A stretch of 64,000 nucleotides of DNA from the NCBI GenBank assembly GCA_963846445.1, contig CAWJWM010000027.1, positions 250,302-314,301 of the forward strand. The letters are read 5' to 3'. Position 1 is the first letter of the stretch, and each line of letters opens with the position of its first letter. Shown here piece after piece: positions 17,468 through 38,482 of this stretch. Source of the DNA: an uncultured Verrucomicrobiae bacterium. Its GTDB lineage: Bacteria > Verrucomicrobiota > Verrucomicrobiia > Limisphaerales > J093. Below the pieces are notes generated by a model. The model did no database searches. It had not been told where the DNA came from and was given only the letters and a program-made list of their open reading frames with translations. The position numbers and the translations under genes are program-made.

Positions 17468-17835
17468 TCGGCAGACCGATGATCGCGGTCGGGTTGCCGT
17501 CCTGGTAGGTGGCGACCCGCTTGGCGATTTCCTCGGCCAGGATGGTGAACTTGAAACCATGCACCACGAAGACACGAAGGTCGCGAAGGCTGGCGTGAAA
17601 GGGGGTGGAGCGGCAAGCCGTGGCCAGACCTCAGCGACAGATGGGAGTCCGGACTTCGTGCTCTCGGTGCCTTCGTGGTGGCTCTCTTGTCGAAAGCCAG
17701 ACTTGCTGACGCGCCTCGTTTGTGCGATACGTCCGCCATCGCCACCACGAGCCGCTGACTCGCTTCGGTTCAGCCAACGACCCGCGCGCAAGGACAAATG
17801 GGGAGACAACCATAAACTGATCCCGCTATGAAGAC
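17468..17835. repeat. ~370-bp direct repeat R copy 1 (5' tail-gene relic 1 + palindrome + start of cargo gene)
   Basis: Aligns by eye with 19721-20088 at offset 2253. Contains the CACCACGAAG...CTTCGTGGTG palindrome (17562-17680) and ends in ATGAAGAC. Confidence 0.9.
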
Positions 17836-19484
17836 GCGAAACGCGATCAAGAGGTCAGCGAAACCGGACAACACGCCAACCAATCATTCACACTGCCGAG
17901 CTTGGCGGCTCCTGCCGCTGCTGCTGCTTTTGATGTTGGCGGCCACGGTGCAGGCCCAGTGCAACTACACCGTCAGTCAGGGCAAGGTTGCGATTACGGG
18001 ATACACCGGCCCCGGCGGTGACGTGACCATCCCGGACACGATCGAGGGCCTGCCGGTCACCAGCATCGGGTACGGGGCGTTCTCTTCGTGCACCGGCCTG
18101 ACCAGCATCATGATCCCCGACAGCGTCACCAGCATCGGGGACCTGGCGTTCTCGTGGCTGCACCGGCCTGACCAGCATCGCGATCCCCGACAGCGTCACC
18201 AGCATCGGGGGCGGGGCGTTCTATGGCTGCACCAGCCTGACCAGCGTCATCGATCGGCAACGGCGTCACCAGCATCGGGGAGGAGGCGTTCAGGGACTGC
18301 ACCGGCCTGACCAGCATCACGATCCCCGACAGCGTCACCAGCATCGAGAACGGCGGCGTTCTCATGACTGCAGCCGGCCTGACCAGCGTCACGATCCCCA
18401 ACAGCGTCACCAGCATCGGGGACTCGGCGTTCTCTGGCTGCACCAGCCTGACGAGCGTCACGATCCCCGACAGCGTCACCAGCATCGGGGGCATGGCGTT
18501 CTCTTCCTGCACCAGCCTGACCAGCATCACGATCCCCAACAGCGTCACCAGCATCGGGTACGGGGCGTTCTCTTCGTGCACCGGCCTGACCAGCATCGCG
18601 ATCCCCGACAGCGTCACCAGCATCGGGGACGGGGCATTCGCGAACTGCACCGGTCTGATCAGCATCGAGATCGGTAACGGTGTAACCGCAATCCCAGGCA
18701 GGTGGTGCTTCCTTTTTTGTGGTGGCTGTTATGGACAAGGATTGCTAGAAGGATGCAGCGTCCTGACCAGCGTGACGATCGGCAACAGCGTCACTAGCAT
18801 TGAGGGTTGGACGTTCGCAGGCTGCACCAGCCTGACAAGCATCACCATCCCCAACAGCGTTACGCTCCTCGGGGGCCACGCGTTTGAGGGATGCACCAGC
18901 CTGACGAACGTCACGATCCGGGAAAAGCATCACCAGCATCGCAGAGAGGACGTTCTCTGGTTGCACCAGCCTGATCGGCATCATAATCCCCGACAGCGTC
19001 ACCAGCATCGGGGACTCGGCGTTCGAGAACTGCACCAGTCTGACCAACGTCACGATTGGCAACGACGTCACCGGCATCGTTGGTGCGCGTTCGCAGGCTG
19101 CACCGGCCTAGGGAACGTCTACTTCCAGGGGAACGCGCCCGAGGATTGGGGGACATTCGCCGAGTGTCCGGCGACGATTTACTACCTGCCGGGAACCACT
19201 GGTTGGGGAACGACGTACAGCGAACGTCCGACGGCGCCCGTGGGTGCGCCCTGACCCAGTCGATCCTCGATTTCGGCCCGAGCTTCGGCGTGCAGCCCAA
19301 TGGATTCGGCTTCCGGGTCTCCTGGGCCACGAACGCCAACGTGGTCGTCGAAGCTTCAGCGGACCTCGCCAGCCCAACCTGGTCCCCGGTGAGCACCAAC
19401 ACCCTGACCGATGGCTGGGTCGACTTCACCGACGCCGAGTGGGCGAAGTACCCGGCCCGGTTCTACCGCGTGCGGGGGGAGTGA
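17828..19484 (+). CDS. BspA-type leucine-rich repeat (LRR_5) surface protein with C-terminal FYRV module; frameshifted
   Basis: Signal peptide; ITGYTGPGGDVTIPDTIEGLPVTSIG; ~23-aa repeats TSITIPNSVTSIGxxAFxxCTSL; ends FTDAEWAKYPARFYRVRGE. Confidence 0.88.
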
Positions 19485-19492
19485 CACACACC

Positions 19493-19820
19493 TCACGCCG
19501 CCGGCACCTCCCACACGTACCCGCCGGCGTGGCGCTTGATGTGGCCGGTGGTGACGTTCAGGATCAAGTACCCGGTCGGGATCGTGCCGGTCGACGGATC
19601 GGCGGTGACCGCCGCCGGCCTGATCTGGATCCACGTCCCCGGCGTGCCGGCCACGGTGCAGCCGGCACTCCCCGCCCAGCGCATCGCGCCAGAACTCGGC
19701 CAGGACGAGCGTCCCGGAGGTCGGCGGGCCGATGATCGTGGTCGGGCTGCCGTTCTGGTACGTGGCGACGCGCTTGGCGATTTCCTCGGCCAGGATGGTG
19801 AAGTTGAAACCATGCACCAC
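19493..19820 (-). pseudogene. Phage tail-fibre-like gene relic 2
   Basis: AEEIAKRVATYQNGSPTTIIGPPTSG..EFWRDALGGE..CTVAGTPGTWIQIRPAAVTADPSTGTIPTGYLILNVTTGHIKRHAGGYVWEV. Confidence 0.7.
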
Positions 19821-20088
19821 GAAGACGCGAAGGTCTCGAAGGCTGGCGTGAAAGGGGGTGGAGCGGCAAGCCGTGGCCAGACCTCAGCGACAGATGGGAG
19901 TCCGGACTTCGTGCTCTCGGTGCCTTCGTGGTGGCTCTCTTGTCGAAAGCCAGACTTGCTGACGCGCCTCGTTTGTGCGATAGGTCCGCCACTGCCACCA
20001 CGAGCCGCTGACTCGCTTCGGTTCAGCCAACGACCCGCGTGCAAGGAGAACTGGGGAAACAACCATCAACTGATGCCGTTATGAAGAC
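19721..20088. repeat. ~370-bp direct repeat R copy 2
   Basis: Near-identical to 17468-17835. Confidence 0.9.
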
Positions 20089-21172
20089 ACGATCCTGGAA
20101 ACGTCGACTCGACTCGCTTTGGTGCTGGGCCTGGCCGGTTGGGCGGCGGGGCCGCCGGCTTGGGCGCAGGAAGCCCCGGTCCTGGAGATCGCTCTGTATC
20201 CCGGAATCCGGGTGACCGGCGAGGTCGGGGCGACGTACGTGATCGAGAGCACGACCGACGTGGAGGGGGATTTCTGGCTGACGCGGGGGTGGATCGAGCT
20301 GACGACGCCGACGGCGATGTGGATGGACCCGGTGCCGACGGACTCGCCGCGACAGGGTTTACCGGGCGGTGAAGGTGACCAAGCCGGTGGTGCAGACGAT
20401 CCCGAACATGGTGTGGATTCCGCCGGGGAGGTTCGTGATGGGGAGCCCGGAGGGCGAGCGAGGGCGGTGCGGACTGGGAAGGTCCGCAGACGCGGGTGAC
20501 GTTGACGAAGGGGTTCTGGATGGGGAAGTACGAGGTGACGCGGCGGGAGTACCTGGCGGTGATGGGGAACAACCCGTCGTCGTATCGACCCCGGAGAACC
20601 CGGGCGACCTGGATCGGCCGGTGGAGCTGTGTAAGCTGGGATGATGCGGTGGCGTACTGCGCGAAGCTGACCGAGCAAGAGCGGGCGGCGGGGCGGTTGC
20701 CGACCGGGCATGTGTATCGGCTGCCGACGGAGGCGGAGTGGGAGTATGCGTGTCGGGCGGGGACGACGACGCGGTATTCGCTTTGGGGACGCGCTGGGGT
20801 GCGATGACGGATGTGAGTACTGTGCTCTGTTGGATTCGTACATGTGGTGGTGTGGGAACTCGGAGGGCAACTGCACCGAGTGGGGCAGAAGCTGCCGAAT
20901 CCGTGGGGTTTGTACGACATGCACGGGAACGTGTGGGAGTGGTGCCAGGACTGGTGGTCTGGGACATCCTATCCCGGGCGGGATGGTCGTTGACCCCCAG
21001 GGGCCGACCACGGGCTCGGACCGTGTGATCCGCGGCGGCTGCGACTGGGACGACTGGCTCGGCTGGGACGGCAGCGCCAGGCACTGCCGGTCAGCGTACC
21101 GCGACAGCTACGACCCGGGCTGCGGGTACGACTACCTCGGTTTCCGGGTCCGTGCTGGCCCCAGGTCAGTGA
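20081..21172 (+). CDS. Formylglycine-generating-enzyme (FGE-sulfatase/SUMF1) domain secreted protein; frameshifted
   Basis: [61 protein letters not shown]...GFRV..APGQ. Confidence 0.88.
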
Positions 21173-21339
21173 GCCAGGCGGTCAAGCGGAGCTGTCCGGA
21201 GCAGGCTGGCGGAGCGAGGGACGACGCGGAGCCGAGCCTGCGGAGGGGCAGCGTAGCGGGGTGTTGACAGGCGCGTGCGACGGTCTGAGGCAAAAGGAAA
21301 GCCCCGCGCAGCGGTCGCGATTTCGTGCGAGTGCAGCCT

Positions 21340-21730
21340 CTACGCCCCCGGCACCTCCCACACGTACCCGCCGGCGTGGCGCTTGATGTGGCCGGTGGTG
21401 ACGTTGAGGATCAGGTACCCGGTCGGGATCGTGCCGCTCGACGGATCGGCCGTGACGGCCGCGGGCCTGATCTGGATCCACGTCCCCGGCGTCCCCGCCG
21501 CCGTGCAGCGCAACTCCCCCGCCTGACCCGCATGCTCTATAGACTCTTGACCACCACGAAGCCGCACACTCAGAAAGAGGGATGGATGCGGGCCAGCCCG
21601 GATCGCAGACTGCACGAAGCTCTGCGAAGGATCCGGGCTTGGGCGTCGCGCCCGAACTCATCGAGGAACATGCGTCCCGCTGGCCGGCGGGCCGATGACG
21701 GTCGTGGGCGAGCCGTTCTGGTAGGTGCCT
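21340..21730 (-). pseudogene. Phage tail-fibre-like gene relic 3, interrupted by a ~120-bp double-hairpin insertion (~21522-21642)
   Basis: TYQNGSPTTVIGPPASGTH...[insert]...CTAAGTPGTWIQIRPAAVTADPSSGTIPTGYLILNVTTGHIKRHAGGYVWEV. Confidence 0.7.
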
Positions 21731-22042
21731 TCACGCTTGGCGGTTTCGGCGGCTGGGCCATCGTTGATCGCCCGGACCTGCGCCCGCGTTGACGGATCCT
21801 CACATCACCGTAGATGCGGTAGGCTCAGAATGACCCCGTCGCACAGCGCATGTTGCTGCGCGATATGGGAAACTCCCGCCGGCGAGATCGCTTCGATGCA
21901 GTATCTATCCAGCTCATCGCCAAACTTCTTGTCTTCCAATTGAATGAGCCGCTCTTTGCTCAGCTCTTGAATGACTTCGAGAGGAAATCCGCACTGGCGC
22001 AGCGTTGGCCGCACGCCGAAATACAGCAGATCGCGCAGGCGA
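21356..22042. repeat. ~690-bp direct repeat S copy 1
   Basis: Matches 36446-37130; the 21733-22042 portion is almost identical. Confidence 0.9.
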
Positions 22043-22074
22043 ATGAGAGCTACCCGTTTGTCCTTGTCGTTCAT
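21805..22074 (-). CDS. Small hypothetical protein
   Basis: MNDKDKRVALIRLRDLLYFGVRPTLRQCGF...; its 3' part is duplicated at 36893-37130. Confidence 0.55.
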   Translation of the reverse strand: MNDKDKRVALIRLRDLLYFGVRPTLRQCGFPLEVIQELSKERLIQLEDKKFGDELDRYCIEAISPAGVSHIAQQHALCDGVILSLPHLR

Positions 22075-22188
22075 GGGTTCGGCAGACCGAGTCCTACCCA
22101 CCGGACTCGGCCCACATCCTTCTGATACGTAGCCGGCGAAGGACTTTGCCACAGTATCCGCCTGCCGCTCACAGACGTCAACATGGTC

Positions 22189-22347
22189 TCACGTCTTTGC
22201 CGCCGTGCCTTTGGTCGAGGGCTGATCGGGAGCGCTTATGGGCTGCAGCCCCTCTTTACCAGGCTTACGTTGGCGCTTCGCTTCCTGCTTCTTCTGTTTC
22301 GCTAGCTCCCTGCTGCGCTTTTCATACTGGTAGTTTGGCGTTGTCAT
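22189..22347 (-). CDS. Small basic protein (PNYQYEKRxRELAK type)
   Basis: MTTPNYQYEKRSRELAKQKKQEAKRQRK, with an AGGAAGG RBS-like sequence upstream. Confidence 0.65.
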   Translation of the reverse strand: MTTPNYQYEKRSRELAKQKKQEAKRQRKPGKEGLQPISAPDQPSTKGTAAKT

Positions 22348-23325
22348 CGTCGTTCCTTCCTGTTGGTCTGCTCGATCACTTCGGCACGGCATCGCGGGGG
22401 CGTCTCGCCACCGGGGCCGGGTTCAGGCTGGACCGATGTGCTGGCAGATTCGAGCTTTTACTCCTTCAGCACTCACCGTTCTCTCGACAGCCTTGCTGCA
22501 CGGTTCTCAGAGACACTGTCAGAAGGTCATCGCCACGCCGAGCACCCGCGCTCCAGATCACCAAGGCGCCGATTTCATCGCGCAGGCGAATAGGGGCGAC
22601 CAACCCGTCTTTGCCCGCCCGTCCCTGGTCCTTTGTCATTCCGTCGCTGGCCGGTCCAGTCCGCTCAGGTCGGTCCCCGCCCGGAACCGGCCCGAAGGGA
22701 TGAGGGTCACGGACGGGCGTTGGACTGATACTGGCCGACCTCTCATCTGCGAAAACACTTGTGGCGAGGTGTTTTGAGGTGTCCGCTGGCAGCCCGGCTG
22801 TCCTCACCTTCCCGAACGAGCAGAACTCGGGAAACGGCCTGCCACGGCCCTCGGTTCAGCCAGGTGGGCCATCCTGGAAGGGATCGGGCTTGCTGGCTGA
22901 ATTCAAAAGCCGTGGGGACATGGTGTTGATCGAGCGCTCGCCGCGACCGACCCGTACTCGCTCTCACGACCCTGGCCCTCGCTCTGCTCGCCTAACCGAC
23001 GATCGCGGAAGGATCGTCAGTCACCGCCTGAAGAGCCGCAGGTATAAACCGGCGGGTGAAGCCGTTCGAGTCAATCCCCGCATCCACGTCATGCTTCGGG
23101 GGCAGGGTAATAGCTCAAGGCTGCCGCAGGCCATAGTGGTTTTGGGGATTGCCTGGTTCGCCTGGTCGTCCCTCTCGCTTACCTGCATCAGGGTTTCACC
23201 AATCGGAAGAACTCCGCCGCGTTGGCCACTGGAAGCGTGATAGTCGTCGCTGTCTCCGATCCAGGAACGTCTTGCCAGAGAGGGTTGATGACCGAACTGG
23301 TCCGTTGGAGTTTTGACCCCAGGGC

Positions 23326-23406
23326 CGAGTCAAGCCACTCAAGCCGCACGCCCGTTTGTGTCAGCGTAACGCGGACGACCGTTGGCTCAATTCGTTATGG
23401 TTAGGC
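23326..23406 (-). other. Degenerate attC-like site downstream of the methyltransferase cassette
   Basis: Minus strand: GCCTAAC 12 bp after the stop, then CGAATTGAGCCAACG (also present at 31768-31782), then a weak complementary box GTGGCTTGACTCG. Confidence 0.5.
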
Positions 23407-23418
23407 GGCATGCGGTGC

Positions 23419-24051
23419 TTATTCATGTCGTTGCCTGAAGAAATAGCGCCCGACGCGTCTGGAGTAATCTCGATAAGCATCACCGTAAAGTCCCGTGAGA
23501 AACCGCTCCTCTCGATCCATGATTGCATGTAGCAGCGGCACCCAAACCAAGGCGAGCACCAAGAAGGCATAGCCGACCGATCAGCAAGAACGTCCCCATG
23601 AACCAGAGGTCGAAGGCAACGTATATGGGATGCCGTGTCCAGCGGTAGACGCCTCCAGTGACCAGAGGTCCAGGCGCACTCCGGTCGAAACCCAGCCGCC
23701 ACGACGCCCCGAGGTCGCGGAGCGCGAGGACGTAGAGTATCACTGCCCCGGTAACGATCAGGGCTCCCAACGCCTGGCTGGCTAGCCCATCAACCACCGA
23801 ACCGTGTCCAGAACCGATGGTCCAATGTGAAAACGAAGCTGCCACGCATACGCAATGATCTCGTAGGCGAAGGCCAGCAGACACGCAACCATCACCGTAT
23901 CGGCCAGCATCTGCCAGCCGGTCCGCTGCCGATCGCCCACGAAGACCGACACTCCGCGCGCCCGCAACATGAGAGCACGCATCAGGCCGAGACCCATCAA
24001 ACACGTAAGCGCGCCGAAGGCAAACCACTCAGAGAATCGTGACGTTGTCAT
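23419..24051 (-). CDS. Isoprenylcysteine carboxyl methyltransferase/PEMT family membrane protein; frameshifted
   Basis: LGASWRLG..LVTGGVYRWTRHPIY...EERFL..LYGDAYRDYSRRVGRYF; preceded by GTTCGGC just before the ATG. Confidence 0.8.
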
Positions 24052-24140
24052 AGCGCGCGCGCTCGAGCCGAACTCTGATTGTATGACGAGCGGTTTATGT
24101 ATTGAAATCCAGCGAAAAAGGGGTCAGTCCCGAATGGCAG

Positions 24141-24488
24141 TTAGTTAAGCCCTAACGTTTTCTTGGAGAGTCGTTTGCGTCGGGTGGTGCTGGGCAGGTT
24201 CTTCCACATGTAGGCGACGGTCTGCCGCTGCATTTCCAGGAGGATATCCCAGACCTGGCGCTGGTTGGCGATCGCCTCCTTGAGCCAGGCAAACTGCTCG
24301 GCGCTCAGGGCCACGGTCACCGTCTTGCGGCCCACCCGCCGCGACCACTGGTAGCGGGGGCCACCCTGGCCGGGCCGGCTCCGTTCCAAGACGCTGCCCA
24401 GCGCGATCCAGCCCACCTGGCTGAGTTGGTCGCGGAGCCGGCGATAGGCCGCCGGCAGTTCGGGCGGCGGAGCGGATTTCACTTTCAT
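24141..24488 (-). CDS. IS-associated small protein (DUF6788-like)
   Basis: GWIALGSV..GPRYQWSRRVGRKTVTVALSAEQ..LKEAIANQR; stop lies in the left TIR. Confidence 0.6.
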   Translation of the reverse strand: MKVKSAPPPELPAAYRRLRDQLSQVGWIALGSVLERSRPGQGGPRYQWSRRVGRKTVTVALSAEQFAWLKEAIANQRQVWDILLEMQRQTVAYMWKNLPSTTRRKRLSKKTLGLN

Positions 24489-24538
24489 GCAGAAAAGTAT
24501 AGACACCGTGTCAATAGGACAGTATAAGCGCTGTCCAC

Positions 24539-26007
24539 ATGACGACCCCAGACCTCCCCGCCTTCGCCCCCCTCTTCGCCCAGCAACTCCAACAGCTCCG
24601 CACCGCCACCCAGGCCGCCCTCCACCAGTTCCAGGCCCTCTTCGAACCCTGGATCGCCCCACTACCGCCTGGCCCAGCAAGACGAGGGTCCCCACTCCCG
24701 CAACCGCTGCTGGAACCTCCGCCTGGTCTTCTGGACCTTCCTGTGGCAAATCGCCCAGGCCGGCGCCTCCTGCCGCGAGGCCATCGACCAAGCCCGCAAC
24801 CTCTGCCACCTCCAGAAACGTCCCCAGCCCCCCGACAAGACCAGCCCCTACTGCCAAGCCCGCGGCCAACTCCCCCTCGAACGTCTGGATGACATCCACC
24901 AAGCCGTCGTCACCGAAGCCGAGGCCGCCAGCGCCTCCCGCGACCTCTGGTGCGGCCTGCGCGTCTCTCGTCGTCGATGGCACCACCCTCACCGCCCCCG
25001 ACACCCCAGAGAACCAAGCACGCCTTTCCCCAACAGAAAGGGCAACGTCCGGGTTGTGGCTTCCCGATCCTGCGCTTGGTCGCTTTCTTCGCCCTGGCCA
25101 CGGGGATGATCACCGGCTGGATTCACGGGGCCTATGGCCAGAGCGAACTGGCTCTGCTCCAGCACCTTTGGGAAGAACTGCGCCCGGGCGAACTGCTTGC
25201 TGGGGGACCGCGGCTTCTGCACCTGGGGCCTGCTGGCCCAGTGCCAGGCCCGTCAGGTCCACGCCGTCTTCCGCGTCCGCGGTTCCCGCCGCCGCGACTT
25301 CCGCCGCGGCAAACGCCTGAGCCGCGACGAACGCGAAGTCCGCTGGGCCAAACCCACCCAGCGCCCCAGGACCGTCACCGCCGAGGAATGGGCCACGTCT
25401 GCCCGACGTCCTCTGTCTGCGCTTGGTCCGCTGCCGCGTCAACGTCCGGGGCTTTCGCACCCGCCAAGTCATCCTGGTCACCACCTTGCTCGACCGCGAC
25501 GCTTACCCCCTACACGCTCTCTCCGAACTCTATCTGCGCCGCTGGGAGATGGAACTGACCCTGCGTCACCTCAAGGTCACCCTCCAGATGGACCACCTGA
25601 GCTGCAAGACCCCGGAGAACCTCGAACGCGAAATCCGCCTGCACCTCCTCATGCACAATCTGGTCCGCCGCGTCATGCTCGAAGCCGCCCGTCGTCACCG
25701 CGCCCCCTTGAACCGTCTGAGCTTCGCCGGCGCACTGGCCGCCTGTCGCCGCTGTGGCGAAGCCCTGCTCCAGGCCCGTTCCCAGCGCCAGCGTCAGGAA
25801 CTGCTCGACGAACTGTTCCGCGGCATTGCCGCCGACTTACTCCCCGATCGTCCCGGTCGCCGCGAACCCCGCGCGGTCAAACGCCGCCCCAAACCCTACC
25901 CGCGACTGACCTGTCACCGCAGTAAGTTCAAGGAAATCCAACATCAAAACCGCTACTACAAGAACAGTCCCTACGCCGGGAAATACCGCAAATCTTCGAG
26001 GGCTTAA
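24539..26007 (+). CDS. IS4-family DDE transposase (frameshifted)
   Basis: VVDGT, LGDRGFC, YLRRWEMELTLRHLK (YREK motif), RPGRREPRAVKRRPKPYP. Confidence 0.9.
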
Positions 26008-28087: not shown

Positions 28088-28427
28088 AGAGTGTCACTTT
28101 CACCTGCCGTCAAGGACTTGGCTGCGGCACCCTTGTAACGGAAAAGCCAGTGTGACCGCAAGCGTCAGGCGAATCCTCCGGTGACGAGGAACGCCCGTGG
28201 CGGATAGTGCCCGGCAAGTTCTGCAAGAACGGAACGGGTCAGGGCAGGGGACCCGGGGGGTGAGAATGAACCCTGGCAAACGAAAGGCCCGAACGCTGAC
28301 CCGAAAGGAACGAGAACGCAGCGGCAAGAAGGTAAGGATGGATGTGGCGGACGAAAAGGGGTCAGTCCCGGAAAACAGGAATATTCGGCTTGACGCTGGT
28401 TCTTTGACGAGGTCGCTGCTGTTGGTC

Positions 28428-29610
28428 ATGGCGCGAAAGGTGCGAGTCGAATATCCGGGCGCGGTTTATCAGGTGATGAGCCGGGGCAATCAGGGCCACG
28501 CCATTTTCCTAGCGAGGCGCGCCTCAGACCAAATCCCAGTCCTCATAGGCATGAAAAGTCCCCGTGTTTTCCAGCCCCTCTCTCCCGCGCCTTGCTCCTT
28601 AGAATCCTTGACCCCTTTAACGCAGCACAAACACTTGACTTGTCTACAACACATTTGACCGGTCAAGGATTCTAGCGGACCGTGACGGCAAGCTCTTCCT
28701 GGATACCTTGGGTGAAGGTTGCGAGAAGACGGGCTGGATCCTTCACGCCTATGTCCTGATGGCCAATCACTATCACCTCTTGGTGGAGACCCCGGAAGGG
28801 AACCTGGCGGCGGGGATGAAATGGTTCCAGGGGACGTATACGCAGCGGTACAACAGGCGGCATCGGATCTTCGGCCATTTGTTTCAGGGGCGGTACAAGG
28901 CGCTGATCGTGGACGGGAGCGCGGACGAGTATTTCCAGGTGGTGAGCACGTACATTCACCTGAACCCGGCGCGGGCGGGTTTGATCCGCATCGGGAAGGA
29001 CGCGTTGAGCGTGTATCGGTGGAGCAGTTACCCCAGCTACTTGTCTCGACCGTCGTGTCGGCCCCCCTGGCTGCGAGTGGCTCGGGTGCTCGGCAGTGTG
29101 GGCATTGGGGCGGACGACAGGATCGGGCGCCAGGGGTACGAAGCGTATGTCGAGGGGCGAGTGCTCGAGTTGGGGAAGCAACAGAGCCGAGAAGCGCTGA
29201 ATCAGGAATGGAGGCGGGTCCGGCGTGGGTGGTACCTGGGGCAAGGGCGATTTCGACGGCGGTTGGAGGACTTGCTGGAGAAGGCGCTGGCGGGCAAAGC
29301 GCGGGGGTCGCATTCGGGCGAGGCGCGGCGGGCACACGATGGAGCGGCGGCGGAAAGGTTGTTGGGGCTGGGGTTGGAGGTCGTGGGGTTGAAGGAAGGG
29401 GACTTGGCCGGGATAGCCAAAGGGGCGAAGGAGAAGCAAGTCCTGGCGTGGTGGTTGCGGAAGCGCACGGTGGTGTCGCGGGGGTGGGTGAGTCGGCGTT
29501 TGGAGATGGGGGACGAATCGCGGGTGACCCAGGCGGTGGCGGCGGTGAGGCGCACGCGTGATCGCGAGGTGTTGGCGTGGCGCGGGCGATTGGAGCGGCT
29601 GAATTCGTGA
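28428..29610 (+). pseudogene. REP-associated tyrosine transposase (RAYT), interrupted by a 163-bp hairpin element
   Basis: MARKVRVEYPGAVYQVMSRGN, HAYVLMANHYHLLVETP (HUH), GHLFQGRYKA, YIHLNPARAG, YRWSSY. Removing 163 bp restores a 339-aa ORF. Confidence 0.88.
28509..28677. repeat. A+B hairpin element inserted in the RAYT gene
   Basis: Inverted copy of 465-626, with CTAGCG at both junctions (28509 and 28672). Confidence 0.9.
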
Positions 29611-30527: not shown

Positions 30528-30607
30528 CTGCGGCTTCCAGCGTGAGTTGGCTGAAACACTCGACTCCCGCCCCGTGTTTGGGCACTCTGCGGCTCACGTT
30601 GAACAAA

Positions 30608-31240
30608 ATGACCGCCGCCGCCATCCGGCATCTCTCGACCGTCGACCCGATTCTGGGGGCGTTGATTGCCAAAGTTAAGCCATGCGACCTCAAGCCAGAC
30701 CGCGTCCAGTCGCCGTTCCAGGCGCTCGTTCAAGCTGTGGCGCATCAGCAACTCAACGGCAAGGCGGCAAACACCATCCTTGCCAGGTTCATCGCCCTGT
30801 TCCCGCATGGTAGATTCCCGTCGGCCAAAGAGATTGTTGACTTGAACGCCAGTGCCCTGACCGGTGTCGGGTTCTCGCGGGCCAAGGCCGCGTACGTGAG
30901 GGAGATCGCCCGCCTGGCGCTGGAAGGAGTGGTGCCGGGCAATCGCCAGATCAACCGCATGTCGGACGACGAGATCATCGCCCGGCTCACGCAGATCAAA
31001 GGGGTGGGCCGCTGGACGGTCGAGATGCTGTTGATCTTCAGCCTGGGCAGGCCCGATATTCTGCCGGCTGATGATTACGGAATCCGACAGGGCTTCGCCA
31101 TCGCGTTCGGCAAGCGCAAGCTGCCGGAGCCAAAGCAAATCCTGAAACACGGCCAGAAGTGGAGGCCATATCGAACAACCGCATCCTGGTATCTGTGGCA
31201 GGCAGTTGATCTCCGCGAAGGGCGGCAAAAACCCTGGTGA
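30608..31240 (+). CDS. DNA-3-methyladenine glycosylase II (AlkA/HhH-GPD family)
   Basis: FQALVQAVAHQQLNGKAA, GFSRAK, LTQIKGVGRWTVEM, DILPADDYG, WRPYRTTASWYLW. Confidence 0.9.
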   Translation: MTAAAIRHLSTVDPILGALIAKVKPCDLKPDRVQSPFQALVQAVAHQQLNGKAANTILARFIALFPHGRFPSAKEIVDLNASALTGVGFSRAKAAYVREIARLALEGVVPGNRQINRMSDDEIIARLTQIKGVGRWTVEMLLIFSLGRPDILPADDYGIRQGFAIAFGKRKLPEPKQILKHGQKWRPYRTTASWYLWQAVDLREGRQKPW

Positions 31241-31411
31241 CACGCCCGCAAAGCGAAACTGCGGTATACCGACCCGCGTCGGCAATGTGCTCGTCGTCGT
31301 TAAGGTCACAGGGACACTGCGAACGCTGTCGACCCGGCGCGGCACGTGAAATCAGGTTTCGGGCCGTACTAATCCCGGATCAGTACGTAGACGGTGTGCG
31401 GCACATCGCGT

Positions 31412-31592
31412 TCAGGAGCCTGATAGCGGCCACCGGTCCGTCCACCAAGCGTACCTGCGCCCGTATGGGCAGCCGCCGGTGGTCTGCGAAGCGTAGGTGG
31501 CGGCGCCTTGGTTCGGCCCGGCCCGCTGGGCGGTCGGCGTCGCGCCGTCGAAACCGACCTTGGCCGACGTACCCGCGCCGATCGTGATCTCC
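31412..31592 (-). pseudogene. Phage tail-fibre-like gene relic 4 (3' part)
   Basis: EITIGAGTSAKVGFDGATPTAQRAGPNQGAATYASQT, homologous to the continuation in relic 6 (EIAVSANATAKDGFHGQTPTAQRAG). Confidence 0.6.
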
Positions 31593-31686
31593 TGCGAGAA
31601 CAGGTCGAGAAGCCCGCCGACTTTCAGGAAGGACAGAACGCCGCCACCGGGGCGCTTTGGCAGCGCCTCGCGGTGCCTTGGCGCGA

Positions 31687-31795
31687 GGAGAACGCCGAGC
31701 GAATCAGTCACGATCCGTCGGGCCGCGGGAGGGAATCACAGGCGCAGAGGCAGCGGGCCGGCGATGCCGTTGGCTCAATTCGCACAGGGTTAGAC
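31687..31795 (-). other. attC-like site downstream of the DUF1232 cassette
   Basis: Minus strand: GTCTAAC ... CGAATTGAGCCAACG ... CGTGACTGATTCG ... GTTCTCC, i.e. an R''-L''-L'-R' layout starting 4 bp after the stop codon. Confidence 0.6.
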
Positions 31796-31799
31796 CCGC

Positions 31800-32073
31800 T
31801 CATGATACAAGCGCCCGCCGATGCTCCTCCAACAATGGCTTCGGAATCGTCTTGAGCGCCAAATAGACCAAAGTGGGAACGATGACGGCATCGTCCAGAT
31901 ACCCTACTACCGGAATGAAATCGGGGATGATGTCCACCGGCGAAAAGGCCTAGGCCACCGCCGAGCCGAGCAACCACTTCGTCAGCTTTGGCGTCCGTGG
32001 GTCTGCCAAGAATGTTCCGGTAAAGCTGAAGCTCTCGGTTGAATCTCAGGATTAGTTCTTTGAACTTCTTCAC
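31800..32073 (-). pseudogene. DUF1232/YkvA family protein (frameshift and in-frame TAG)
   Basis: [36 protein letters not shown]. Confidence 0.8.
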
Positions 32074-32354
32074 GTCTATCGTTGATCATACGAACTGCCG
32101 GTTCGTATACAGAAATTCGCTCTCGGGACGGCAAGCTCGCCCCGGACGCCTTGCCGCCTGACGGCAAGCACGACCTGCCCCAAACAGCCGGGGTGCTGGC
32201 TTTATGCCGCGACTCTAAGCCCGAGCCGGGTCTGACGGCAAGCCGGCTTTGGCTCAGCGGCGCCAGCCTACGCCCCTCCGTTGACAACGCCCCCCCTCGA
32301 CGAGCGCCGTCTGGGTCTCGCGGAGGAGCGCCACCGCCACCGTCGCGCCGTGAT

Positions 32355-33179
32355 TCAGCGTTTGATCTCGCTGAACACGTAGCGGATCACATACGCGACG
32401 GGCTGCGCTTCGTCGTCGCTGCCCGAAGCGCTGACATTGAGCAGGACCAGGGCTTTGCCGAACCGGGGCACTTCGCTGTGGCGGAGCTCCATCTTTCGCG
32501 TGCGGGTCGCCTTGCGCTGGGGGGAAATCTCCACACCGCTCTCGGCCAGAACCGACAACTCGAAGTTCACCTGGACGCAAAGCTCCCGGGCGGGCGGGGG
32601 TGGGCGATCCAGCGGCGCACCGGCAGAGAGATGAACGATCAGCCCCGTGTCTTGGTAGGTGATCGAGTTGATCGATGGGCCGGAGTTCCTGCCCATTGAG
32701 CCGGTAACCATCGGTTCGCTGGTGCCCAGCATGATGCTCTCGTCATAGAGGTTGACGGTCTGATCGATCTTGTAGAGCACCCTCGTCTTGCCGAACTCGG
32801 CCAGGGCTTTCGCCAGATCTTGGGCGGTGGCGGCCTTGGCTTCGAGCGCCTGCGCGTCCAGATCGGCGATACGGTGCTCGGGAACCTGAAGCTCGAAGAC
32901 CGTTACCTCGAGACGAGCCGGAGCGATTTGGCCCGGGGGTTGCGATGCCGGTCTCGACTGCCGCATGGGGTTCATCTCGGGAGGGCGAACCCGCTCGATG
33001 GGCACTCCGGCTCTACCACCGGGCATCGCCGGGCTGCGCGTGAGGACAGGCGGCGGGGTTGGCTCAGGCGGCGGGGGCAGTTCCTGGGCTTCCGAGCGCC
33101 ACGAGGCCAGAGGGGTGAGGCCGATGGCCACGATGGCTGCCGTCGCCAGAACCGTCGGTCTAGCTGAGTGGGTTTTCAT
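32355..33179 (-). CDS. Secreted hypothetical protein with Pro-rich linker and a secretin-C-terminus-like segment
   Basis: Signal peptide MKTHSARPTVLATAAIVAIG; QELPPPPEPTPPP; SITYQDTGLIVHL. Confidence 0.55.
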   Translation of the reverse strand: MKTHSARPTVLATAAIVAIGLTPLASWRSEAQELPPPPEPTPPPVLTRSPAMPGGRAGVPIERVRPPEMNPMRQSRPASQPPGQIAPARLEVTVFELQVPEHRIADLDAQALEAKAATAQDLAKALAEFGKTRVLYKIDQTVNLYDESIMLGTSEPMVTGSMGRNSGPSINSITYQDTGLIVHLSAGAPLDRPPPPARELCVQVNFELSVLAESGVEISPQRKATRTRKMELRHSEVPRFGKALVLLNVSASGSDDEAQPVAYVIRYVFSEIKR

Positions 33180-33526
33180 GGGGTTGGCCGGAGGGTGCCG
33201 GGAAGGAGACGCGCTGAACACGCGGGTGGGGGGAACGCGGAAACGCCCTGCGTCGCAGACCGCCCAGCTCTTCGCTTCATGGTCCGACTGTATCTCGATG
33301 CGGCCCTCGCGGCAAGGCATTTGGGACTTCGCCGGATGGCTGGGCACGGGATCAGGCCTCTGAGGGCCGCCGAAAAACCGCCGAGCGGGACCTGCGATGA
33401 CGTGGCTCCTGCACCGGCGCCGCCCGGCTCTCGCTCCGCAGCGTGACGGTGGGCACGGCCTGCTCCCACGTCGGCGGGTCGGTGAGGATCTGTGAGATTG
33501 GGTAGGAAGCGGGACGCAGGCCATGA

Positions 33527-33925
33527 CTACGGCCCAGCGTGGTGATTGTGACCATGCCTTCCGATGGTGATGGCGGCAACACCGCAGGCCACGCACACGC
33601 TCAAAACGCTCGCCACGAGATCCCACCTGTCAAACCTGTATCGGACCTTCGCCAAGATCCCGGGTCGGGGGAGGAGTTGAGCGAACTCCAGTGCGAGTGC
33701 CATCGCCAGGATCAGCAAAGTGGTCTGGAGAAGGGAGCGCCGCGTCAGGCTGCCTTTGCTGGAGAGCCACAGGAACAAAAAGCCCGCCGGGCCAAGCAGA
33801 CTCGGCGCGACGCTGACCAGGAACGCGCCGCTGCCGTTCAATCCCAACCCACGCGCCGCCTTGACGGGAATGATCAAAAGGAGGAGCAACGCCCCAAGCC
33901 ACCCGTGGAACTTCGCAACTCTCAT
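33527..33925 (-). CDS. Small membrane protein
   Basis: Hydrophobic ORF MRVAKFHGWLGALLLLLII...LEFAQL...FDRWDLVAS. Confidence 0.6.
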   Translation of the reverse strand: MRVAKFHGWLGALLLLLIIPVKAARGLGLNGSGAFLVSVAPSLLGPAGFLFLWLSSKGSLTRRSLLQTTLLILAMALALEFAQLLPRPGILAKVRYRFDRWDLVASVLSVCVACGVAAITIGRHGHNHHAGP

Positions 33926-34124
33926 TCGTTCTGATGTTCCGCTCTGCAAGTGCACCTCCGAGCCATCGCCATAATCCTTCTGTAATCTTGTAGGAACGTA
34001 CCGGAACGGAAGGTGGCATTCAAAGCGAAACGGTCGGAATTGCTGCTCAGTAAGGTGTGTGTGCCAGCCTCCCCGGCGCGGCCTGGCGGGGATCGGGTAG
34101 CTGCGTGGCTGGCGGTCTGCTGGA

Positions 34125-34480
34125 CAGTCGGCGTGACGCTTCACCGCCCCGTCGGTGACGCTCCAGACCAGGTACCCGGTCGGGATGGTGCCGCTGGCGG
34201 GATCGACGGTGACGGCTGCCGGCTTGACCTGCTGGCGGGTCCCCGGCGTCCCTGCCCCGGTGCAGGCCCACTCCCCGCCCAGCGTGTCGCGCCAGAACTC
34301 GTTAGGACCCGCGTCCCGCTGGTTGGCGGGCCGATGATCTTCGTCGGGCTGCCGTTCTGATAGGTAGCGACTCGCTTGGGCACTCCCTCGGCCAGGACCT
34401 CGAAGTTGTCCTGGACCAGCGCCATGAAGTTCGCGGCGTTCTCGACATCTTTCAGTCGTGGGTGTGGAGGGATGGTAGCG
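34125..34480 (-). pseudogene. Phage tail-fibre-like gene relic 5 (retains N-terminus)
   Basis: RLKDVENAANFMALVQDNFEVLAEGVPKRVATYQNGSPTKIIGPPTSG..EFWRDTLGGEWACTGAGTPGT..GYLVWSVTDGAVKRHAD. Confidence 0.7.
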
Positions 34481-34485
34481 ACAGG

Positions 34486-34795
34486 TCAAGTTTTGCGGAC
34501 GGTGATTTCATCATAGTCGAGGCTGCGGAACCCGTTGCTTTGCGAGTAGGCCCGCAGGCTGAAGGTGATCTGGGAACCAAGCGCCGCGACCAGGTCGGCG
34601 TTGGCGATGGTGGCTAGTCCCGACGCACCCGTCACAGTGATTTGCGCCAGTTCAACTCCCCCGGTCGTGGTGATGACCAACAGAGTGTGGTGGGTGGACG
34701 GGGCGAGTGTCTCGGTCGGTGGGGTGAAGCTGCGCGTGTCGCTTGTCGGGTCCCACTGCACGACCAAGTTCTGGCCGGTGGTGTAGGTGGGGCAC
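34486..34795 (-). pseudogene. C-terminal fragment of a probable phage tail-tip protein, directly upstream of relic 5
   Basis: PTYTTGQNLVVQWDPT...ITFSLRAYSQSNGFRSLDYDEITVRKT*; Thr-rich, beta-strand-like; no 5' part. Confidence 0.45.
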
Positions 34796-34928
34796 CAACG
34801 ACCGAACAATCGGTGGTGTGCCATGCTGAGACACAAGGAACCTGAATGATCCCAAGCCTTCGTTCCTTGTGGGTTCAGCATCTCTTGACTGGCGTCCTGT
34901 GCCAGTTTACGAGAGGCGACCACTGAAC

Positions 34929-36164
34929 GTGCACTCCCGACATTTAGGTGGTTCGCCGTGTCCCAACAGCCCGCCTGCGGCCTGGCGGGCTCTGCCCGCT
35001 GGCATTTGGGCGTTGGGCTTCGGCTCGCTGCTCATGGATGCCTCCTCGGAGCTGATCCACAGCCTCCTACCGGTGTTTATGGTCACTGGGCTGGGGGCTT
35101 CCGTGGTGACGGTCGGCGTGATTGAGGGCGTGGCGGAAGCGACCGCCGCTGTCATGAAGGTCTTCTCGGGCACCCTCAGCGATTACTTGGGCAAACGCAA
35201 GTTCCTGACGGTTCTCGGCTATGCACTCGCGGCGTTCACCAAACCGGTTTTCCCGCTCGCCACCTCAATCGGCTGGGTATTCACGGCGCGTTTTGTCGAT
35301 CGCGTCGGCAAAGGGATCCGCGGTGCACCACGCGACGCGCTGGTGGCCGACATGACGCCGCCGCAACTGCGAGGCGCGGCGTACGGGCTGCGCCAGGCGC
35401 TCGATTCGGTTGGCGCGTTGGTCGGCCCGCTGCTGGCAGTCGCGCTCATGAGTTGGCTCGCCAATGACATCAGAGCAGTGATGTGGGCTGCGGTGGTGCC
35501 GGCTTTCACCGCAGTGGCGTTGCTGATGATCTATGTCCGCGAACCCGAGCCCGCACACGCGCACGGCCCCACGGCCCGGTTCACGGTTGCGAATGTCCGA
35601 CGTTTGCCGTGGCGCTACTGGCTGGTTGTGCTGCTGGGGGCGGTTGTTACACTAGCGCGCTTCAGCGAAGCGTTTCTTGTGCTGCGCGCCCAGGATGCCG
35701 GGCTCGAACTCAGGTACGTGCCGCTTGTGATGATCGTGATGAACGTCTTTTACGCCGGAGCCGCCTACCCAGCCGGGGCCGCCGCCGACCGAGTCAGCCA
35801 GCGCACATTGCTGTTCCTCGGGCTGGCTCTGCTGATTGCCGCGGATTTCATGCTCGCCTCTGCCGCATCGCCGTTGTTTGTGCTCGGGGGTGCCGCGCTG
35901 TGGGGCCTACACATGGCCTTCACGCAAGGGCTGTTGTCGAAACTTGTTGCGGACACTGCCCCCGCAGAGCTACGCGGGACGGGTTTCGGGATATTCAATC
36001 TTGTGAGTGGCAGCACGTTGCTGTTGGCGAGTGTCATTGCCGGCGCTCTATGGAGCGCTCTTGGGCCGTCGGCCACGTTTCTGGCCGGTGCCGTCTTCGC
36101 GGTCATGGCGGCCATTGGTTTGCTGGCCACCGTGCGGCAGCGCAAGCCAGAAGCCGTGAAATGA
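34929..36164 (+). CDS. MFS transporter
   Basis: Many hydrophobic segments; LMDASSELIHSLLP, SGTLSDYLGKRK, DRVGKGIRGAPRDALVAD. Confidence 0.9.
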   Translation: MHSRHLGGSPCPNSPPAAWRALPAGIWALGFGSLLMDASSELIHSLLPVFMVTGLGASVVTVGVIEGVAEATAAVMKVFSGTLSDYLGKRKFLTVLGYALAAFTKPVFPLATSIGWVFTARFVDRVGKGIRGAPRDALVADMTPPQLRGAAYGLRQALDSVGALVGPLLAVALMSWLANDIRAVMWAAVVPAFTAVALLMIYVREPEPAHAHGPTARFTVANVRRLPWRYWLVVLLGAVVTLARFSEAFLVLRAQDAGLELRYVPLVMIVMNVFYAGAAYPAGAAADRVSQRTLLFLGLALLIAADFMLASAASPLFVLGGAALWGLHMAFTQGLLSKLVADTAPAELRGTGFGIFNLVSGSTLLLASVIAGALWSALGPSATFLAGAVFAVMAAIGLLATVRQRKPEAVK

Positions 36165-36279
36165 TGCCTGTGTGGCAGCGGTCAGTTCGGTCCAACAGCG
36201 TGTCTGAAAACAGCATGGGGTTCTGTTTTCGTGGCAAAGGCATGATGGCGAGGCACGAGGAGGGAGGATACCCGTAGCG

Positions 36280-36815
36280 GTCTCTGGCCGACGAGCCCGT
36301 CCTCGACCTCCTGCGCCTCCGTCGGCGGGGCGCCGATGGTCTGCGTGCAGCAGGTGACCGCGGCCCGGTTCCCCCGGCGCGCTGAGCCGTCGGAGTCTGG
36401 CCGTGGAATCCGTCCTTTGCCGTAGCGTTCGCGCTGACCGCGATTTCCCACGAGTACCCGCCGGCGTGGCGCTTGATGTGGCCGGTGATCACGTTCAGGA
36501 TGAGGTAGCCGATCGGGACGGTGCCGGTTGAGGGATCGGCCGTCAACGCCGCCGGGCGGATCTGGATCCACGTCCCCGGCGTGCCGGTTCCCGTGCAACG
36601 CCACTCCCCGCCTGGCCCGCATGTTTCATAGAATCTTGACCGCCGCGAGGCTGCAGACTCCGACGGAGGCATGGATGCGGGCCAACCCAGATCGCAGACT
36701 GCGCGAAGCCCTGCGAAGGATCCGGGCTTGGGCATCGCGCCAGAACTCATCGAGGACATGCGTCCCGTTGGTAGGCGGGCCGATGGCGGTCGTGGGCGAG
36801 CCGTTCTGGTAGGTG
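36280..36815 (-). pseudogene. Phage tail-fibre-like gene relic 6, with the same double-hairpin insertion (~36612-36731)
   Basis: TYQNGSPTTAIGP..EFWRDA[insert]GGEWRCTGTGTPGTWIQIRPAA..HAGGYSWEIAVSANATAKDGFHGQTPTAQRAG..QTIGAPPTEAQEV. Confidence 0.7.
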
Positions 36816-37130
36816 ACGACTCGCTTGGCGGTTTCGGCGGCTGGGCCATTGTTGATCGCCCGGACCTGCGCCCGCGTTGACGGGTCCTCACATCACCGTA
36901 GATGCGGTAGGCTCAGAATGACCCCGTCGCACAGCGCATGTTGCTGCGCGATATGGGAAACTCCCGCCGGCGAGATCGCTTCGATGCAGTATCTATCCAG
37001 CTCATCGCCAAACTTCTTGTCTTCCAATTGAATGAGCCGCTCTTTGCTCAGCTCTTGAATGACTTCGAGAGGAAATCCGCACTGGCGCAGCGTTGGCCGC
37101 ACGCCGAAATACAGCAGATCGCGCAGGCGA
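36446..37130. repeat. ~690-bp direct repeat S copy 2
   Basis: Matches 21356-22042. Confidence 0.9.
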
Positions 37131-37498
37131 TAAAACCGGTGCGAACCGTCCGCGTCCACCGTGGTAGAAAAGTCGTCACCGGCGGCGGTCACGGCATTCG
37201 TAACGGCGCTCCAGCCAGCGGCGGGCAACGCGGCGGCAAACTCGAGAACGCAGTTGGTGAAATGCGTCGCCCACGCAACGCGAAGCGATCCGTTTCCTGC
37301 CTGCGTGACGCTCAACTGCGGCAGCGCCACAAGAGTGATGTTGGAGATGGTGACGTACCAGGCGTGTCCGCCTGCCCAACCTGTGATTCCATTCCACACG
37401 ACACCTCCGTTGGTCGGCATCGAGAATGTCCAGTCGAACAGGTACTGCGTTCCTGAAGGGTAGAGATTCCGTACTCGAACACGCGACTGTCGGTTCAC
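36893..37498 (-). CDS. Chimeric ORF: FYRL-module protein fragment fused in frame to the 21805-22074 small gene
   Basis: ...TTVDADGSHRFY|RLRDLLYFGVRPTLRQ...; the junction coincides with the end of repeat S. Confidence 0.6.
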   Translation of the reverse strand: MNRQSRVRVRNLYPSGTQYLFDWTFSMPTNGGVVWNGITGWAGGHAWYVTISNITLVALPQLSVTQAGNGSLRVAWATHFTNCVLEFAAALPAAGWSAVTNAVTAAGDDFSTTVDADGSHRFYRLRDLLYFGVRPTLRQCGFPLEVIQELSKERLIQLEDKKFGDELDRYCIEAISPAGVSHIAQQHALCDGVILSLPHLR

Positions 37499-38130
37499 GG
37501 CGTGATCCGGTGGGCGACGAACGTGCCGTTGGTGCGCTCACCGCCAAACGTGCTCCAGCCCCAACGTCCCTGGAAAATGGTGCCGTCGTAGACGCCGTCG
37601 AGAAACACGTTGTTGTCCGCCCAACCCCTATTCAGGTTGATCGACAATCGGCTGCCGTCCCAGTGGCCCTCCAACTCACCTTGCCCGATTTGCGGGCCGA
37701 TGTCGCGACCGGCCGTCTCCGGGCTGCCCGGCCCCACATAATCAAACGCCCACGTGCCTGAAACCACGTTGGTTACCCACTCAAGGTGAAGCTGCCCTGT
37801 CACCAACAGGATACCCTCCGGGTTGAAGCCCTGATAGGCGAATCGCCCAGGCTGCGGCGGTGCATCCGTCCAAACGACCCGGTAGAACATGGGCACGGTA
37901 ACGGTCACGGTCGCGTTGCTGGCCTGGACCCGGGACAGGTTCGTGAGCGCCTCGAACTGCTGCCAGGGGCCGGTGGCCGAACTGGCCCATTCGACCCGAT
38001 AGGTCGCGTTCCTGACGGTGTTGGTCCACGTCAATTGGCCGTGGCAGTCCAACGAGGTGATGGTCACGTCGGCGGCGCTGACTGCAACGGCCAGCAGCTC
38101 ACAGAGACCCACGGCAATTGGAATCTTCAT
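37495..38130 (-). CDS. Secreted hypothetical protein with N-terminal FYRV module
   Basis: Signal peptide; GQLTWTN..ATYRVEWASSATGPW..PMFYRVVW; then a beta-rich domain (NLNRGWADNNVFLDG). Confidence 0.7.
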   Translation of the reverse strand: MKIPIAVGLCELLAVAVSAADVTITSLDCHGQLTWTNTVRNATYRVEWASSATGPWQQFEALTNLSRVQASNATVTVTVPMFYRVVWTDAPPQPGRFAYQGFNPEGILLVTGQLHLEWVTNVVSGTWAFDYVGPGSPETAGRDIGPQIGQGELEGHWDGSRLSINLNRGWADNNVFLDGVYDGTIFQGRWGWSTFGGERTNGTFVAHRITP

Positions 38131-38295
38131 AAGACATGCGGTGATATTCCAATTCCAAGATGGCCGTGTTTTTCTGAGAGTCAATGGGAGACATCGTCGA
38201 CCGCCGGTTGTGCCGCCAGCCTGTCTGCTCTTGGGAAACGGCCCGCCAGGGGCACGCGTCCGACAAGGCGCGCCATCCTGGCAGGATGCCGGGTT

Positions 38296-38482
38296 CACCA
38301 GTCCGCTCCCGCCTGGCGCCTCACCGCGCCGTCGGTGACGTTCCACACCCAGTACCCGACCGGGATCGTGCCGCTGGACGGGTCGGCGGTGACTGCGGCG
38401 GGCCTGATCTGGATCCACGTGCCTGGCGTGCCCGCCACCGTGCACCGCCACTCCCCGCCTGGCCCGCATGTTTCATAGAATC
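38296..38482 (-). pseudogene. Phage tail-fibre-like gene relic 7 (mosaic), marks the right end of the island
   Basis: GGEWRCTVAGTPGTWIQIRPAAVTADPSSGTIPVGYWVWNVTDGAVRRQAG; begins with the same insertion end as relic 6 (CCTGGCCCGCATGTTTCATAGAATC). Confidence 0.7.

Follow-up and report, generated by a model that had tools for sequence, protein, structure and literature searches.

Co-oriented fragments of a phage tail-fibre-type gene alternate with unrelated genes in an island of an uncultured Verrucomicrobiae bacterium

The rhs genes and the effector-immunity arrays of bacterial type VI secretion systems (T6SS) undergo 'C-terminal displacement', in which a constant 5' region is joined to a replaceable 3' region. 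In the account of Kirchberger et al. (2017, PMC5361080), new modules pair in the constant part, old versions are pushed downstream as co-oriented, 5'-truncated orphans, and the proposed mechanism is homology-facilitated illegitimate recombination. Here, we describe an island in an uncultured Verrucomicrobiae bacterium in which seven partial copies of one phage tail-fibre-type gene, all on the minus strand, alternate with unrelated genes. The island spans 17.4-38.5 kb of what we call the window, the whole 64,000-nucleotide (nt) stretch analysed (assembly GCA_963846445.1, contig CAWJWM010000027.1, positions 250,302-314,301 of the forward strand; contig C27 below). We lean towards viewing the island as what erosion has left of the 3' end of a siphovirus-type prophage tail module, together with a string of recombination products of that module's last gene, and in our best reading the closest process would be a displacement like that of rhs and T6SS arrays, acting through homology-anchored recombination.

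Two further bodies of work on phage-derived loci frame the comparison. Experimental assays with lambdoid phages of E. coli show that relaxed homologous recombination lets prophage remnants trade DNA with related phages (De Paepe et al. 2014, PMC3945230). As with those defective prophages, chromosomal remnants persist in our case and traces of homology lie at the borders of exchanged segments; unlike them, the remnants described here belong to Verrucomicrobiota, form arrays in which a contig carries up to nine fragments of one gene, and have no observed phage partner. Tailocins across a genus swap their tail-fibre loci through homologous recombination in the conserved DNA on either side (Pardeshi et al. 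2026, PMC13195805), with the cluster intact and its position conserved, whereas here the tail module is gone and fragments accumulate. We found no published description of tail-fibre fragment arrays in a literature search that was not aimed at such arrays or at Verrucomicrobiota, and which is thus no proof of absence.

The initial annotation of this DNA, made from its letters alone, had reported seven co-oriented minus-strand pieces of one gene, and all seven are present by repeat search, self-blastn and tblastn. The repeat search of the window returns a 168-nt direct-repeat family (at 19495, 21342, 34099, 36432 and 38279) and a 105-nt family (at 17449, 19702, 21665, 34304 and 36753), while self-blastn returns two longer duplications, 17461-17839 against 19716-20092 (379 nt, 93.9% identity) and 21356-22042 against 36446-37130 (687 nt, 91.6% identity). 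Mapping by tblastn with an intact homologue of 200 amino acids (aa) from a relative (L005/L019) gives E values from 1e-10 to 1e-47 and places each fragment within the gene. The only window copy with a true 5' end is c34 (34130-34482; aa 1-117), and c31 (31466-31600; aa 120-164) is apparently its displaced 3' part by tblastn, the two apparently reading as a single gene divided by about 2.5 kb. Among the others, c38 (38172-38482, with the tblastn match at 38459-38172) consists of half of an insert, I, followed by aa 68 to about 118, and is a mosaic with a crossover near 38345; c36 (36290-36841) covers aa 30-66, the 118-nt insert I, aa 68-146 and aa 150-177; c21 (21352-21753) has a short piece of aa 163-177, then aa 30 to about 60, the 118-nt insert I, aa 71 (approximately) to 124, and a stop; c19 (19490-19805) is a short form, aa 25-126 plus a stop, with one frame change as assembled; and c17 (17367-17549) matches aa 26 to about 52 by tblastn, its DNA homology to c19 stopping near 17470. 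No complete copy of the gene lies in the window, and the assembled genome holds neither a full-length copy nor an intact J-like tail-tip gene (J), an absence that is unproven because the assembly is incomplete. The fragments differ from one another by 8-25%, with third-position changes in excess, and represent different alleles (synonymous divergence, dS, 0.3-0.85). Silent-cassette variation of the pilE/pilS type was considered and set aside, given that neither of those intact genes is in the (incomplete) assembly.

The protein that the initial annotation had reconstructed agrees with intact homologues in relatives, several of which carry a matching open frame of about 200 aa. Its attribution of all the pieces to one gene of phage tail-fibre type holds as well, through the J-like context in relatives and through viral contigs. 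At locus L013 the intact gene directly follows a J-like tail protein (6769-9603; PF13550, 1e-7; phrog_1101, 2e-83), and at L035 it closes a full siphovirus-type tail module comprising a tail assembly chaperone, a tape measure, two tail assembly proteins, a minor tail protein and the J-like protein. The same order, J-like protein then gene, is found in L013, L019, L020, L021, L035, L037, L041, L042 and L176, with J remnants of varied length (145-945 aa) preceding the gene in relatives. In the window, a J-like C-terminal remnant (34486-34923, minus strand; E 2.9e-13, residues 674-772 of 773) lies directly upstream of c34, and the C-terminal motif it carries also precedes the intact gene in L013, L019, L020 and L035. 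Only the last ~100 (to 145) residues of the J-like protein survive in this genome, the match lying at 34492-34794; this second phage gene remnant corrects the initial account of the island's phage-gene content. Among viral contigs, relatives are encoded at 57 IMG/VR loci, and the gene's distance from a contig end is 0-4.3 kb in the six closest; six loci match either aa 1-200, at 55-58% identity, or aa 1-127, at 80%.

Scanning 1.84 billion representative proteins with HMMER returned 169 relatives at E <= 1e-3. The first ~124 aa form a conserved domain and the distal parts differ among homologues; in many long homologues (329-1205 aa) the conserved domain sits at about residues 67-130, and locus L037 holds a 455-aa long form. 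Of ten homologues scanned for additional families, one (P0062) has a pectate-lyase beta-helix with tailspike PHROGs, one (P0088) a Laminin_G_3/CBM match and one a head-decoration family, while five have none. The window fragments themselves match no Pfam or PHROG family, and the intact form matches just phrog_1219 (tail needle) among PHROGs, weakly (E 2e-3 to 7e-3). An AlphaFold (AF2) model of the intact form has a mean confidence score (pLDDT) of 60, with a beta-rich core at residues 41-125 scoring 71-87, and Foldseek returns tail-fibre-like but weak matches, the best being a gp53-like tail fibre (E 6e-4, TM-score 0.25). On context and architecture, and not on fold, we take the gene to be of phage tail-fibre type: its ~124-aa N-terminal domain probably docks on the tail tip and is followed by a replaceable distal part.

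The initial annotation had anticipated that an intact gene and further arrays would turn up in relatives, and both are present, the former in tail modules and the latter as co-oriented arrays in the same family. When 40 related genomes were searched with 80 in-frame aa of c36, matches came from 15 of 24 genomes of the same family and from none of the 16 in other families of the order; the related genomes are not independent samples. The 79 titled genome loci come, with a single exception, from metagenome-assembled genomes titled Verrucomicrobia/-ota/-ales/-iae, Limisphaerales or 'uncultured bacterium', some titles naming Pedosphaerales or subdivision 3; the exception is titled Gammaproteobacteria. 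Copies are co-oriented in 20 of the 21 contigs that have at least two within 20 kb, G001:C181 being mixed. Where an array keeps a J remnant, the layout is usually the same: in five of six such arrays (G008:C82, G008:C96, G006:C5, the viral genome L037 and this window), the J remnant is followed by a copy that includes aa 1 and then by 5'-truncated copies, here c34 and then c31, c21, c19 and c17. In the bacterium itself, another island, on contig C10 (66.8-89.5 kb), adds at least four copies, all on one strand, and contigs C26 and C20 have one copy each.

The surroundings of the C10 island and of the C26 copy contain other notable genes. The C10 region (C10:62000-92000) includes a tyrosine recombinase at 73357-73875 and, by eye, a terminase-like fragment, a RadC-like open reading frame (ORF) and a GxxExxY-type ORF. 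On C26 (216651-219663), a lone fragment (about aa 57-146) lies just downstream of an 830-aa ORF that appears by eye to have a TIR-like N-terminus and three near-identical repeats of ~95 aa.

Breakpoints of recombination lie inside or at the edges of the fragments. The repeated linkers of the island are fragments of the coding gene, about 90-550 nt long in the window, plus elements that we term H, U, I and V. Fragment c21 is joined to a segment, Y (21754-22152, minus strand), whose 115-aa ORF has no match in Pfam or PHROG; 245 nt of Y are 100% identical to 36886-37130, within the Y copy next to c36 (36842-37130, minus strand), beyond which identity steps down through 93%, 92% and 84% to 80% within the fragment. 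At its far end this tract stops at a 15-nt microhomology, where Y is fused to the terminus of a cargo gene, B. Linker H occurs twice in the window on the minus strand: copy 1 (17550-17839) meets the gene at nt 72 and is 95% identical to copy 2 (19806-20092), with a core of about 155 nt at 17585-17740 that is 100% identical, the adjoining c17 and c19 being just 82% identical to each other. Copy 2 in turn shares 155 nt at 100% identity with C10:66785-66939, where the adjoining fragments have a dS of 0.33; across both H comparisons, adjoining fragments have dS values of 0.26-0.33. All three tracts of complete identity (155-250 nt) thus end in or at fragments that are 80-87% identical.

Comparison with the same-genus genome G005 points the same way. 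Blocks common to both are a two-gene block, A-B (92-94% identical), a block X at 22073-22747 (96%), a membrane-protein block (83%) and a leucine-rich repeat (LRR) module (73%), and their order differs among this genome (G000), G005 and a metagenome contig, one metagenome contig being G005-like; the initial annotation had looked to cargo order for such variation. Gene A differs between G000 and G005 by a nonsynonymous divergence (dN) of 0.032 and a dS of 0.128, the adjoining c38 by a dS of 0.52, and identity between c38 and its G005 counterpart is 93-99% on one side of a point near 38345, within the fragment, and about 75% on the other. A crossover within c38 joins the A-B block shared with G005 to a different fragment allele. 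The suggestion in the initial annotation that the pieces act as homology linkers therefore stands as history, by way of the breakpoints in fragments and the c38 crossover; nothing shows that the fragments 'serve' this end rather than being by-products of it.

Read support was drawn from Logan contigs of four other metagenomes, which mostly represent relatives at 90-99% identity and are uninformative where they leave parts uncovered. None of these runs has a contig spanning the whole island, so that its long-range order is unverified. Candidate fragment-to-fragment joints that could represent deletions (for example, 19693 to 21675 and 34281 to 36731) were rejected, having short sides or extra letters and possibly deriving from paralogous copies in other organisms.

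In the history that we favour, DNA carrying a related copy, from an incoming phage or from other copies in the genome, would repeatedly pair with the conserved domain, and the other end would be resolved illegitimately at microhomology. Each such event would add new downstream DNA and leave a 5'-truncated, co-oriented copy, and later gene conversions and segmental duplications between copies, including those of the C10 island, would reshuffle the blocks. The cargo would be whatever adjoined the recombining copies, and the fragments would be passive substrates with no dedicated machine and no function selected in this genome. The likeness to rhs and T6SS arrays lies in an intact-5' main copy followed by co-oriented truncated ones, and in a joint with one end at microhomology and the other in a homologous fragment. 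The island is unlike them in that the constant region is a phage tail-fibre domain and not a toxin core, and in that the displaced DNA consists mostly of unrelated genes, which lie on either strand, where those arrays have toxin tips and their immunity genes. Beyond aa 124-126, where most copies stop, come unrelated and often convergent genes, with no alternative 3' tips accompanied by partner genes; moreover, this genome has no intact main gene, and in some arrays truncated copies are found upstream of it.

Several observations weigh against this history. Most cargo in the window is not a fibre tip, and two cargo genes, for an LRR protein and for a protein with a formylglycine-generating enzyme (FGE)-sulfatase domain, are convergent with the fragments. 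Neither a donor phage nor a recombination event was observed, and the same-genus genomes provide no empty site for comparison. These genomes keep the left flank with its tRNA-Gly and the gene at 39845-41380 on different contigs, with no fragments within 16-20 kb of either, so that the insertion of the island is not delimitable; composition gives no sharp boundary, and GC3-based gene calling is no more than a rough guide. One array (G019:C37) has four truncated copies upstream of J, and the window has c36 and c38 there, indicating that displacement downstream of one main gene is not the whole story. Finally, a few junction types recur across genera and truncated copies bear a signature of purifying selection, whereas passive scars should decay.

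At the recurrent junctions, copies start at nt 72 (where linker H joins), nt 88 (after a short piece of residues 164-177) or nt 120 (where linker U joins) and end at nt 354-356 or nt 369; a further junction type is a 118-nt insert with inverted ends at nt 199/202. Linker U (31601-31720, minus strand) abuts c31 in the window, and in other genomes it adjoins nt 120 of the gene. Insert I, about 118 nt long, occupies codon 66/67 (nt 199/202) in several genomes; its sites are 36613-36730, 21520-21642 and 38460-38482 in the window, C10:83150-83271, and also L011 and L022. Within this genome H and U are confined to the two islands, and so is insert I except for two weak, partial hits, on contigs C36 and C6. 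A shared short motif and stop at residue ~127 ends 13 copies from five genomes, with homology lost immediately behind the stop. At two short-form ends (C10:68503-68850 and L022 8965-9245), one copy carries TAG in frame with the rest of the gene and the other has CAG in its place; both read-through and a recent nonsense change are conceivable.

The selection signal comes from dN/dS over codons 71-118 (37-48 codons per pair, dS 0.4-1.2). Median values are 0.17 for copies starting near nt 120 (15 pairs), 0.16 for short-form copies (36 pairs) and 0.20 for all truncated copies (190 pairs), against 0.125 for intact copies (6 pairs). Together with the recurrent junctions, these low ratios make simple neutral decay insufficient: either live alleles repeatedly overwrite the copies or the copies are selected. 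The frame breaks in the window do not speak to the choice. The genome is a metagenome bin with a completeness score of 68%, and its own rpoB (C20:115108-118936) is assembled as seven pieces, none of them reaching the family cut-off, with six frame switches; the LRR and FGE cargo genes are likewise spread over at least three frames, and one base at 21149 is missing from three of the four metagenome runs. The assembly evidently contains pervasive indel errors, which may also explain the completeness score, and because of them frame breaks in the fragments are no proof of pseudogenes; they are probably assembly errors themselves. Truncations and joints are structural and do count as evidence. The view of the pieces as relics of a dead gene, advanced in the initial annotation, is not supported, both on this point and because truncated copies in relatives diverge mostly at synonymous sites.

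These data leave room for a live gene family, which we consider unlikely but the strongest of the alternatives: many of the 'fragments' would be working small genes for the conserved domain alone (~85-126 aa), kept by selection, with roles such as adaptors for binding proteins encoded separately or decoys against the tail assembly of infecting phages. The dN/dS of truncated copies (0.16-0.20, against 0.125 for intact ones) fits such genes, as does the conserved stop at which homology ends, and the broken frames of the present assembly, being unreliable, do not count against them. In better assemblies, truncated copies are mostly unbroken single-frame matches (about two thirds in relatives), and metagenome gene calls of 70-150 aa cover just this domain. 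Set against this, neither a start codon nor an upstream signal is common to the copies, whose 5' ends vary (aa 19, 25, 30, 41 and 68); in-frame stops or frame changes interrupt several of those in relatives; and a low dN/dS can be inherited from overwriting phage alleles. A bolder version, to which we give rather less credence, is that the truncated copies are 'anchor-domain-only' genes maintained lineage-wide in Verrucomicrobiota of the Pedosphaerales/Limisphaerales type, where the free domain may compete for the docking site on siphovirus tail tips in an assembly-poisoning defence, or where the copies may be a standing library of fibre modules for phages and host. The conserved stop and the recurrent junctions would then be functional boundaries.

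A quite improbable alternative is that each fragment is the remnant of its own complete prophage, inserted beside the tRNA-Gly and decayed to its terminal gene. The gene is indeed terminal in prophages and uncultivated viral genomes, J remnants precede it in relatives, and the fragments are different alleles; a tRNA-Gly(GCC) (ARAGORN; 15375-15451, plus strand) also forms the left edge of the variable region, where it is the sole tRNA, 1.9 kb from c17. The marks of a tRNA-integrated prophage or island, a direct repeat of the tRNA 3' end and an integrase, are both missing: no repeat of the tRNA-Gly longer than 13 nt occurs in the island, which removes the support for the integration hotspot hinted at in the initial annotation, and of six tyrosine recombinase (PF00589) matches genome-wide none is on C27, with C10 and C26 having one each. 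There is furthermore a single J remnant, the fragments begin inside the gene at recurrent points joined to shared linkers, and two pairs of them are local duplications.

We regard as very unlikely a dedicated cassette system, in which the fragments would be functional linkers of an integron-like platform for capturing and exchanging cargo. Co-oriented arrays with varied cargo do occur in many genomes of the family, recombination endpoints fall inside fragments, and junction types recur; as in integrons, co-oriented repeated linkers alternate with unrelated genes. Unlike integrons, the contig lacks an intI-type recombinase, the linkers are gene fragments of varying length and end points, the cargo lies on both strands and includes transposases, and no attI/Pc-like common end or common promoter is evident; none of ten cargo ORFs tested matches a PADLOC defence family. 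The comparison to an integron drawn in the initial annotation is not supported. Least credible of all is an assembly artefact, in which repeats of several strains or loci would have been wrongly joined. Indel errors are indeed numerous in this assembly, the bin behind it is incomplete, and contigs of other runs join blocks in other orders, but the copies differ by 8-25% with a third-position excess, similar arrays occur in at least ten other assemblies, and two runs have short-read contigs that align ungapped to parts of the island at >=99%.

The cargo between the fragments is as heterogeneous as the initial annotation had stated, and additionally includes transposase genes. On the plus strand, a BspA-type LRR protein (17828-19484; PF13306 LRR_5, 1.4e-55) with 69-nt tandem units, assembled in three frames, is convergent with c19 and has a homologous module in G005; it is followed by the FGE-sulfatase-domain protein (20119-21267; PF03781, 3.4e-19 for 20496-20807; several frames as assembled), fragments of a DDE transposase (25134-26004; PF01609, 2.4e-8 and 7e-3), an IS200-like Y1 transposase (28708-29610; PF01797, 1.5e-8) adjoining a high-copy repeat at 28506-28674, an AlkA-like HhH-GPD base-excision repair protein (30542-31240; PF00730, 3.1e-15) and a major facilitator superfamily (MFS) transporter (34869-36164; PF07690, 2.1e-49). 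On the minus strand are an ICMT/PEMT-like membrane methyltransferase (23480-24028; PF04140, 3.6e-8), a small membrane protein (33527-34100) with a weak VanZ-like match (PF04892, E 0.16) and 83% identity to L017 12428-13041 of G005, and the secreted proteins A (37495-38130) and B, whose block (37131-38130) is common to G005 and 92-94% identical to L017; A and B have no family in Pfam or PHROG scans. Among ten ORFs of no assigned family, none matches a phage structural family in PHROGs except a 224-aa ORF between the tRNA-Gly and c17 (16282-16956, plus strand), which has a weak tail-fibre match (phrog_4492, E 5.7e-4) and no Pfam family. Many secreted cargo proteins here and in relatives end, by eye, in a similar F/Y-[FY]-R-[VL]-R-x-x motif (19440-19484, 37131-37160; L016, L017, L020), which may be a shared sorting or fold signal.

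To the right of c38, a Gfo/Idh/MocA oxidoreductase gene (38492-39484) has its best DNA matches in other families of the order (79% in G028), none of the matches listed at that level coming from a same-genus genome; the gene may belong to the variable region or may have been transferred. One repeat family, at 72-91% identity, occurs at 465-630, 28506-28677, 41516-41592, 41827-41933 and 43429-43606; its 28.5-kb copy, beside the Y1 transposase, has very high metagenome-contig depth (up to 957 in the bin 28296-28959), and the two could be a pair of the REP/RAYT type (repetitive extragenic palindrome and its associated tyrosine transposase). Two other short high-copy repeats lie at 14534-14609 and 15197-15268: a 76-nt unit is found elsewhere in this genome at least 11 times (91-95% identity), and a ~70-nt unit occurs again both here and at many sites in same-genus genomes.

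As a practical caution, frame breaks in this assembly are not readable as pseudogenes. The purifying-selection signal implies either that live phage alleles overwrite the copies time and again, in which case they would be a record of phage traffic, or that they have a function of their own. If our favoured history is right, the docking domain of a tail fibre can outlive its prophage and act over the long term as a landing pad at which unrelated genes accrete and are reshuffled. This would extend the displacement logic of rhs and T6SS loci to phage structural genes and to a poorly studied phylum, and would help to account for one type of variable island carried by Verrucomicrobiota of sludge-type habitats.

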